Translations under genes and position numbers: made by a program | From: Escherichia coli | Lineage (GTDB): Bacteria > Pseudomonadota > Gammaproteobacteria > Enterobacterales > Enterobacteriaceae | DNA length: 64,000 nt | Reading direction: 5' to 3' (one strand) | Assembly: GCF_046105845.1 (NCBI RefSeq) | Contig: NZ_CP151004.1 | Notes under the pieces: generated by a model | What the model saw: only the letters and a program-made list of their open reading frames with translations | Told to the model about the DNA's origin: nothing | The model's database searches: none | Shown: positions 3,508 to 47,220 of the stretch, piece after piece | Layout of the letters: each line of letters starts with the position of its first letter | Numbering within the stretch: position 1 is the first letter of the stretch

Positions 3508-3523
3508 AGCAACTCTCATGCCA
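3508..3523 (-). promoter_or_regulatory. sigma54-type promoter motif (minus strand reads TGGCAT-N5-TTGCT) about 100 nt upstream of yeaG
   Basis: GG-N10-GC spacing read directly; yeaG is known to be nitrogen-starvation (NtrC) induced. Confidence 0.45.
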
Positions 3524-3839
3524 TTTTATCGACGATGAGAACAACGTGCCCGGTGATACACCTTCAAAATTAAGCGTAGATGGCAAATGGAAAACTTGCC
3601 TGCACGGCTTTCTTAATTTCAATGGCATATCAACAACTCATCCATAAATTTTGCATAATTAATGTAAAGACCAGGCTCGCCAGTAACGCTAAATTCATTT
3701 GGCTGTAAGCGCGGTGTCATCCGCGTCAGGAAAATTAAACAGTTACTTTAAAAAATGAAAACGTAAAAAGGTTGGGTTTCGATGTATTGACGGGTAAACT
3801 TTGTCGCCCGCTAAACATTTGTTTAAGGAATGATTAATT

Positions 3840-32370: not shown

Positions 32371-33678
32371 TTATTTGCTGCTGTCCGGGCCGCGTTCACC
32401 CGTTGCTACCGGATTTTTTGGATTGCTGCTCCATTCGTACCAGCCGCCGTCGTAAACGGAGACGTTATTCCAGCCCATTGCTCGTGCGTACATAAAGGTT
32501 TCGGACGCGCGCCAGCCGGTGCCGCAGTAGAATGAAACTTGCTGATCTGGTCTGATATTCCATGCTTTCCACATAGCCGTAATATCATCGGCGCTGCGCA
32601 TGGTGCCATCCGGGTTATGAAAATCTTCCATATGCGTCGAGTCGCTACCAGCGTGTCCCCAACGTGCTCCGGCTATTTCACCTTTTGGTTTAATATAGCT
32701 GTAACCGCTGGTCGTACCGATAAATTCTGGCCACGAACGAATGCTCACCAGCGATGCATCCTGGCGATGCAGCAGTCCACGGGCCTGTTCCATATCGAGC
32801 ATCAACTGCGGTTGTGCCGGGATCTTCACGCCGAAATCCGGTTCCGCTTTCACTTTCGGTGGCGTTCCGCGCTCAACGGGCAGTCCCGCGTCGGACCAGG
32901 TTTGCCAGCCGCCGTCCAGCAGGCGCACATCTTTCACGCCAGCGTAGAGCATAATTTGCGCCACACGCGCTGCAGCGTATACGTCACGCCCGTACAGAAT
33001 GACCGTGGTGTCATGGCGAATGCCGTGTTTTGCCAGCATCGCTTTCAGTTGTTCATCAGAAACTTTGTTCCACAGCGGTTCGCTTTCCACTTCGTTGGTG
33101 TCGATGTAGTCAGCGCCGGGAATATGGCTGATAAGGTAAAATTTTGGAGCGCCCCAGGCCGCTTCAATGACTTTCCAGTCACCGGCAGGTTTCGCCGTAA
33201 CCTCTTTACCTTGTTGCAGGTCATGCAGCCACTGCGGATATACCAGCTGTTCAAAGTGCGGCAGTTTTTGCAGACGGGAAGGTTCGCTTAGCGCGTCACT
33301 CAGGATGGAGATATGCGTAAAACCTGCTTTTTGCAGTCGCGTTTTGACGGCGTCGACATCTTTGTCATTACCGTACAGTGCCACCGGGGCATCGGCTTTC
33401 AGGTTATGTTGCTTGATCCACTCGTTGAGCTGTTCGGTGCTCATTTTGTCGAGCCAGCTAGCAGAGAGGTTTAAGGCGGCAGGTTCATGACCGGAAGGGC
33501 CATTTAAGGTTTGTGGCCAGCCGTTATAAAACGCGCTGGGGCGAGTATCTATCGCTTTGCCATTTTGTTGTTGAAGCTGGTCAAGTGTAAGAGGCTTCGC
33601 CAGTTCAGCGGCCCACGAAGAAGCGCAAGCCAGCCCTAAAGCCATTGCCAGCGCGGTCATTTGAGAAACACGTTTCAT
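32371..33678 (-). CDS. ynjE: YnjE, periplasmic thiosulfate sulfurtransferase (rhodanese)
   Basis: 435 aa from MKRVSQMTALAMAL with signal peptide; tandem rhodanese domains. Confidence 0.88.
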   Translation of the reverse strand: MKRVSQMTALAMALGLACASSWAAELAKPLTLDQLQQQNGKAIDTRPSAFYNGWPQTLNGPSGHEPAALNLSASWLDKMSTEQLNEWIKQHNLKADAPVALYGNDKDVDAVKTRLQKAGFTHISILSDALSEPSRLQKLPHFEQLVYPQWLHDLQQGKEVTAKPAGDWKVIEAAWGAPKFYLISHIPGADYIDTNEVESEPLWNKVSDEQLKAMLAKHGIRHDTTVILYGRDVYAAARVAQIMLYAGVKDVRLLDGGWQTWSDAGLPVERGTPPKVKAEPDFGVKIPAQPQLMLDMEQARGLLHRQDASLVSIRSWPEFIGTTSGYSYIKPKGEIAGARWGHAGSDSTHMEDFHNPDGTMRSADDITAMWKAWNIRPDQQVSFYCGTGWRASETFMYARAMGWNNVSVYDGGWYEWSSNPKNPVATGERGPDSSK

Positions 33679-40717: not shown

Positions 40718-41074
40718 AGTCGCTGCCATTTATTCAGATAAAGAGTGCGTGGATGGTAGCAGAATTTCGCTTTGCGTACCGCCTGTTGTTAAGTGATTTG
40801 ATCGATGGTTGTTAATGATGTCAACGATGGCGCAAAAAATGCCCGCTTTTGGTGCGCGCTGCGTCAGAATGGCGCAGTAATTTCCAGTAAATTTCGTCAA
40901 TGATCACAATTCCAGAATTATATTTTACTTCTGCATAACATTGCGTTTTTTATTCTTTTTATTCACCCACATCGCAAACGTATTCACTTTATATGCACTT
41001 TAAATGCATATGGTTTGGTTATAACTCCTTGATTTCCAGTTAGCCTCCGCCGTTTATGCACTTTTATCACTGGC

Positions 41075-41090
41075 TGGCACGAACCCTGCA
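41075..41090 (+). promoter_or_regulatory. sigma54 promoter motif TGGCAC-N5-CTGCA upstream of astC
   Basis: GG-N10-GC read directly; ast operon is known to be NtrC/sigma54 dependent. Confidence 0.6.
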
Positions 41091-41126
41091 ATCTACATTT
41101 ACAGCGCAAACATTACTTATTATTAA

Positions 41127-47190
<6,064 letters not shown>

Positions 47191-47194
47191 TACT

Positions 47195-47220
47195 TACCCG
47201 CAGAAATCATTCTGCGGGTA
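47195..47220 (+). terminator. putative terminator hairpin after astE
   Basis: CCCGCAGAA-atcat-TCTGCGGG. Confidence 0.5.

Follow-up and report, generated by a model that had tools for sequence, protein, structure and literature searches.

The sigma-54 motif upstream of astC in Escherichia coli very probably represents the characterised NtrC-activated promoter astCp2

The locus is part of a 64,000-nt stretch of Escherichia coli DNA (contig NZ_CP151004.1), the whole of which was analysed and is referred to as the window. It comprises the astCADBE operon, the genes of which lie on one strand in the order astC-A-D-B-E, downstream of a sigma-54 promoter motif in the xthA-astC intergenic region; open reading frames and RefSeq annotation agree on this arrangement. 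The gene astC, coding for succinylornithine transaminase, extends from 41163 to 42383 on the plus strand according to the open reading frame list and to a genome of 99.9% identity annotated in RefSeq. It is followed on the same strand by astA (42380-43414), astD (43411-44889), astB (44886-46229) and astE (46222-47190). The original prediction, made from the sequence alone, had described a compact operon with a stop-start overlap at every junction, and all four junctions were found to overlap. Three of them share an ATGA, which overlaps the stop codon of astC at 42380-42383, that of astA at 43411-43414 and that of astD at 44886-44889. The fourth is the 8-nt overlap of astE with the end of astB (ATGGATAA, 46222-46229). 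Shortly past the stop codon of astE, the plus strand features a GC-rich hairpin, CCCGCAGAA-atca-TTCTGCGGG (47197-47219), which probably marks where the operon ends. The hairpin was not called by the terminator scan because it is not followed by a T-run.

The core of the promoter, CTGGCACGAACCCTGCA, occupies positions 41074-41090 on the plus strand. It is composed of TGGCAC (41075-41080), the spacer gaacc (41081-41085) and CTGCA (41086-41090), and the predicted coordinates of the motif, 41075-41090, proved exact on direct reading of the sequence. The GG doublet of the -24 element is located at 41076-41077 and the GC doublet of the -12 element at 41088-41089, with exactly 10 nt between them, within TGGCACgaaccCTGCA. 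Compared to the consensus TGGCAC-N5-TTGCW, the motif shows a single mismatch, a C instead of the T preceding the GC (CTGCA, not TTGCA). It is intergenic, points towards astC and lies less than 100 nt from the start of this gene. Relative to the ATG at 41163 it spans positions -88 to -73, and the 73 bp between its 3' end and the ATG fit the predicted distance of about 75 bp when this is measured from the -12 end. Of 5426 complete E. coli genomes, 5424 contain a match to the 700 bp around the motif (at least 90% identity), always between xthA and astC, and the identity of this region between the window strain and sequenced E. coli isolates is 99.9%.

A search of the 64-kb window with TGGCACN5TTGCW, allowing up to one mismatch, yielded 5 matches against 3.76 expected, which is not above chance level. 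For a weight matrix, 40 intergenic sigma-54 ChIP-seq motifs were taken from Table 1 of PMC4591121, with astC and yeaG left out. Scoring with such a matrix had been proposed beforehand as a check, and the astC site obtained the highest score, 18.2 bits, of about 128,000 positions on both strands of the window. First-order Markov simulations give an expectation of 0.09 sites of 18.2 bits per random 64 kb, and the median of the training sites is 15.8 bits (range 8.7-21.6). The second rank (15.8 bits) is held by ATGGCATGAGAGTTGCT at 3508-3524 on the minus strand, which is the published yeaG site OS18, EcoCyc-predicted and bound in ChIP-seq (PMC4591121). This sequence is also identical to the yeaG sigma-54 site of Salmonella. 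The third rank (14.9 bits), GTGGCGCAAATTATGCT at 32948-32964 on the minus strand, falls exactly on the published intragenic ynjE site IS23, the spacer of which carries an A in the window strain where K-12 has a G. The matrix is thus validated by its top three matches in the window, each of which is a published site of sigma-54 binding.

For a comparison across genera, species-representative genomes were scanned with a degenerate DNA pattern for the AstC-specific peptide ENFDEWM, a search that does not condition on the promoter. Of the 76 loci obtained, 60 encode AstC. Two of these 60, in which the contig ends within 500 bp upstream of the match to the peptide, were left out. The loci belong to about 12 genera (Escherichia, Salmonella, Citrobacter, Enterobacter, Leclercia, Lelliottia, Kosakonia, Phytobacter, Silvania, Pseudenterobacter, Huaxiibacter and other Enterobacteriaceae). 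In 57 of the 58 remaining loci, the highest-scoring sigma-54 site in the 520 bp upstream lies at the equivalent distance of 109-111 nt from the coding sequence. In the exception (locus L021) it is outscored by an NtrC-like palindrome, and the aligned orthologous position still carries CTGGCACGAAGCGTGCAAT.

The 58 loci and the window gave 59 distinct sequences, which were aligned with MAFFT. Positions 41070-41079 (CTGGCTGGCA) and 41087-41090 (TGCA) are invariant in all 59 sequences and their spacing is fixed, while the 5-nt spacer of the motif occurs in 13 variants. On average, the aligned sequences agree with the window at 99.5% of positions in the two elements, at 77% in the spacer and at 71% over the intergenic region taken as a whole. 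Invariant elements at a fixed distance, separated by a drifting spacer, are the pattern expected from selection on the contacts of sigma-54. The sequence of Escherichia albertii NBRC 107761 has ATA, not ATG, at the position orthologous to 41163-41165, which could reflect loss of the start codon or a sequencing error. Its promoter reads TGGCACAAACCCTGCA, with a G-to-A exchange at the first base of the spacer.

A primer-extension study of the astC sigma-54 promoter was reportedly published by Kiupakis and Reitzer in 2002. In sigma-54 ChIP-seq, the 17-mer CTGGCACGAACCCTGCA is recorded as site OS17 with astC as downstream gene, a modest occupancy (FAT 7) and the flag 'C' for experimentally confirmed in EcoCyc; sigma-54 was bound there in non-starved M9 cultures (PMC4591121). 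A table from 2010 includes astC among the known sigma-54-dependent promoters (tggcTGGCACGAACCCTGCAATctac, -88 to -71), and expression changes were reported upon alteration of sigma-54 levels (PMC2831329). Binding of NtrC in the xthA-astC intergenic region was observed by ChIP-seq (PMC4066584), and gSELEX recovered the same region with RpoN holoenzyme, with NtrC and with the two combined (PMC8743547). The orthologous site of Salmonella, TGGCACGAATGCTGCAAT, is bound by sigma-54 in ChIP-chip (PMC3844500), and that of Klebsiella, TGGCACGAACCGTGCA, is a predicted site 74 nt upstream of astC (PMC11704786 supplement). The sigma-54 promoter of astC has been described as weak, and NtrC-dependent reporter expression is driven by the ast promoter (bioRxiv 086108). 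An analysis of 1035 transcriptomes identifies NtrC as the dominant regulator of ast, the expression of which varies together with that of other operons under NtrC control, ddp among them (PMC13401006).

The distance of 62 nt between the start predicted for OS17 and astC (PMC4591121) places the sigma-54 transcription start at position 41101 of the window. This start, which that study predicted by a rule (19 bp from the motif centre), is an A on the plus strand, 12 nt downstream of the C in the GC element. The original prediction of a start about 12 nt past the GC element therefore agrees with the rule-based position and with the EcoCyc 'confirmed' flag, and with these only; the exact base is best regarded as a predicted one. 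The ACA at 41101-41103 is invariant in all 59 orthologous regions. Folding of the resulting 62-nt leader (41101-41162) predicts nothing unusual (z = +0.92), and a riboswitch or attenuator was rejected on this basis. A search of the intergenic region against Rfam yielded nothing above threshold, the mgtC_leader hit of 21 bits (gathering score 48) being a chance match, and the sigma-70 scan found no promoter on the plus strand from the sigma-54 site to astC. Two blocks of the leader, TTAACAT and TTATTTA (within 41121-41129 and 41143-41149, plus strand), are kept across genera and are devoid of stable predicted RNA structure.

The extended -10 element recognised by sigma-S has the consensus KCTAYRCTTAA. 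A candidate for such an element, TCTACATTTAC, is located at 41092-41102 on the plus strand, where it overlaps the -12 to +1 region of the sigma-54 promoter. It matches the consensus at 9 of 11 positions. The stretch AATCTACATTTACAG (41090-41104) is nearly invariant among the 59 orthologous regions, and as judged from the alignment this conservation appears to exceed what contacts with sigma-54 should need. Expression of astC is RpoS-dependent (PMC1413537; bioRxiv 082537), with which a sigma-S start near 41106, some 5 nt downstream of that of sigma-54, would be consistent. The candidate element would imply two near-coincident starts, at about 41101 and about 41106, and the two forms of polymerase may compete for the site.

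The main role of the motif might then be a negative one, in which the stable closed sigma-54 complex blocks the overlapping sigma-S -10 element and so keeps astC transcription in stationary phase low until NtrC becomes active. We regard this as unlikely, although several observations speak for it: TCTACATTTAC is nearly invariant beyond the needs of sigma-54 contacts, astC depends on RpoS, and sigma-54 occupies the site in non-starved M9 cultures, in which NtrC activity is not expected. However, the signal that dominates in expression compendia is NtrC-dependent induction, and the promoter drives NtrC-dependent reporter expression. A blocking function would moreover add to the explanation as an NtrC-activated sigma-54 promoter and not replace it.

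NtrC activation requires a look at the region further upstream, where consensus matches for NtrC, as for ArgR and CRP, occur at chance level throughout the window; such matches were therefore used only in combination with positional conservation across genera. Two NtrC-like 17-mers on the plus strand, TGCCCGCTTTTGGTGCG (40840-40856) and TGCGTCAGAATGGCGCA (40860-40876), have their centres 253 and 233 nt upstream of the predicted start. Each has 3 mismatches to TGCACCN4TGGTGCA, a level that alone is not above chance. Nevertheless, 52 of the 59 orthologous regions have an NtrC-like 17-mer centred at -253/-254 and 37 have one at -233/-234, compared to only 12 with a match anywhere from -210 to -30, and the half-sites conserved upstream belong to the TGCACC/GGTGCA type. 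Based on these conserved positions, 40840-40876 was assigned as the candidate NtrC enhancer, together with a GGCGCA half-site at 40829-40834 (both plus strand). The published NtrC ChIP-seq interval (1830021-1830101, PMC4066584) lies over the core promoter and not over the sites proposed here about 230-250 bp upstream, an offset that may be due to peak-calling resolution or to cross-linking through a loop.

A low-stringency sigma-54 ChIP-seq peak upstream of astC (FAT 3) falls inside the candidate enhancer, on ATGGCGCAAAAAATGCCC (40828-40845, plus strand). This sequence resembles two adjoining NtrC half-sites (GGCGCA-N5-TGC) that mimic TGGCAC-N5-TTGC, and the peak could result from cross-linking through the DNA loop.

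The three consensus mismatches in each candidate NtrC site would also be compatible with a real promoter that is activated by an enhancer-binding protein other than NtrC, and a promiscuous activator can indeed fire the ast promoter of Salmonella (PMC3844500). This is very improbable, since NtrC itself was located at the locus by ChIP-seq and gSELEX, the conserved half-sites are of the NtrC type, and ast co-varies with ddp and other operons under NtrC control. That the motif is a chance resemblance, with astC transcribed only from sigma-S or sigma-70 promoters, can practically be dismissed: the plain consensus is as frequent in the window as expected by chance, but no position of the window scores higher with the weight matrix (0.09 sites expected), the elements TGGCA and TGCA do not vary over about 12 genera while the spacer drifts, and sigma-54 occupancy in ChIP-seq, ChIP-chip and gSELEX contradicts it.

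Taken together, we conclude with high confidence that the motif is astCp2, the NtrC-activated sigma-54 (-24/-12) promoter of the E. coli astCADBE operon. NtrC/sigma-54 control of ast, as originally predicted, is borne out by identity with the OS17 17-mer, the table of known promoters, NtrC ChIP-seq and gSELEX, the weight matrix and the conservation across genera. Since astCp2 is already characterised and database-curated, that reading was right and the finding is an ordinary one.

The DNA between the candidate enhancer and astCp2 contains further conserved features, all on the plus strand. ArgR is an accessory, non-essential enhancer of the astC sigma-54 promoter (PMC3037356), and a candidate operator for it would extend over 40982-41020. 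It includes an ARG-box-like 18-mer (40982-40999), the sole match to the ARG box with up to 3 mismatches in the intergenic region, and an adjoining conserved half-site, TG(A/C)ATA (41003-41010). Recurring TG(A/C)AT half-sites fit ArgR, while the search with the ARG-box consensus remained at chance level across the window. Placement of all ARG boxes by eye was tried and dropped; only the one 18-mer and the conserved TG(A/C)AT half-sites are defensible, and the box positions given here are to be read as putative. Blocks conserved across genera in the alignment are TATTCACTTT.TATGCA with (G/A)TG(A/C)ATA (40981-41010), CTG(A/C)ATAA (40929-40936) and GTTTATGCA.TTTT (41052-41065).

In the same loop region, a 37-nt block, TAAATTTCG...GATCACAATTCCAGAATTATATTT (40887-40923), is invariant across about 12 genera and better conserved than the sites resembling those of NtrC or ArgR. 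Within it lie an AATTC-N2-GAATT palindrome and GATCACA, which resembles the right half of a CRP site. The CRP-like 16-mer at 40893-40908 has 3 mismatches, which is not above chance, and the CRP search was at chance level in the window as a whole. The block may bind a regulator that has so far not been assigned to the ast promoter. A wider proposal would be that sigma-54 and sigma-S polymerases are mutually exclusive over the nearly invariant stretch at 41087-41103, which connects the sigma-54 -12 element with the sigma-S-type -10, that idle sigma-54 polymerase represses ast in stationary phase and, separately, that a further regulator binds 40887-40923; we consider this combination doubtful.

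For astCp2 as an NtrC-activated promoter, the following course of events is proposed, the general steps of sigma-54/NtrC activation being established knowledge of the family. RNA polymerase with sigma-54 would bind TGGCAC-N5-CTGCA and wait as a closed complex. Under nitrogen limitation, phosphorylated NtrC on the tandem sites about 230-255 bp upstream would loop to the polymerase, and its ATP hydrolysis would open the promoter. ArgR with bound arginine on the intervening DNA would boost the output as an accessory, not an essential, factor. Transcription from near 41101 would yield a single mRNA for the five ast genes with a 62-nt unstructured leader, and the overlapping stop and start codons would favour coupled translation. 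Both the looping geometry and the translational coupling are inferred.

The promoter connects arginine catabolism with nitrogen starvation (NtrC, sigma-54) and with the availability of arginine (ArgR). Beyond annotation the result is of little importance, as the element is of textbook level and database-curated. It constitutes a clean positive control, in which the correct promoter was identified from sequence alone and the matrix recovered three published sites on top.

Compared to astCp2 of the astCADBE operon of E. coli K-12 (EcoCyc/RegulonDB), the site in the window has the same 17-mer, the same xthA-astC location and the same distance to astC; there is no difference of substance. The promoter of astC in Salmonella Typhimurium (STM1303) is likewise found at the orthologous position, with the elements TGGCAC and CTGCAAT and sigma-54 occupancy in ChIP-chip, and differs in its spacer, GAATG instead of GAACC. 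With glnAp2 and glnHp2, astCp2 has in common a -24/-12 core and tandem upstream NtrC sites. The NtrC sites of glnAp2 are nearer to the promoter than the enhancer proposed for astC (about -230 to -255). In glnHp2, the auxiliary protein between enhancer and promoter is IHF, whereas in astCp2 it is ArgR. Unlike the classical promoters glnAp2 and glnHp2, astCp2 is classed as weak (bioRxiv 086108).
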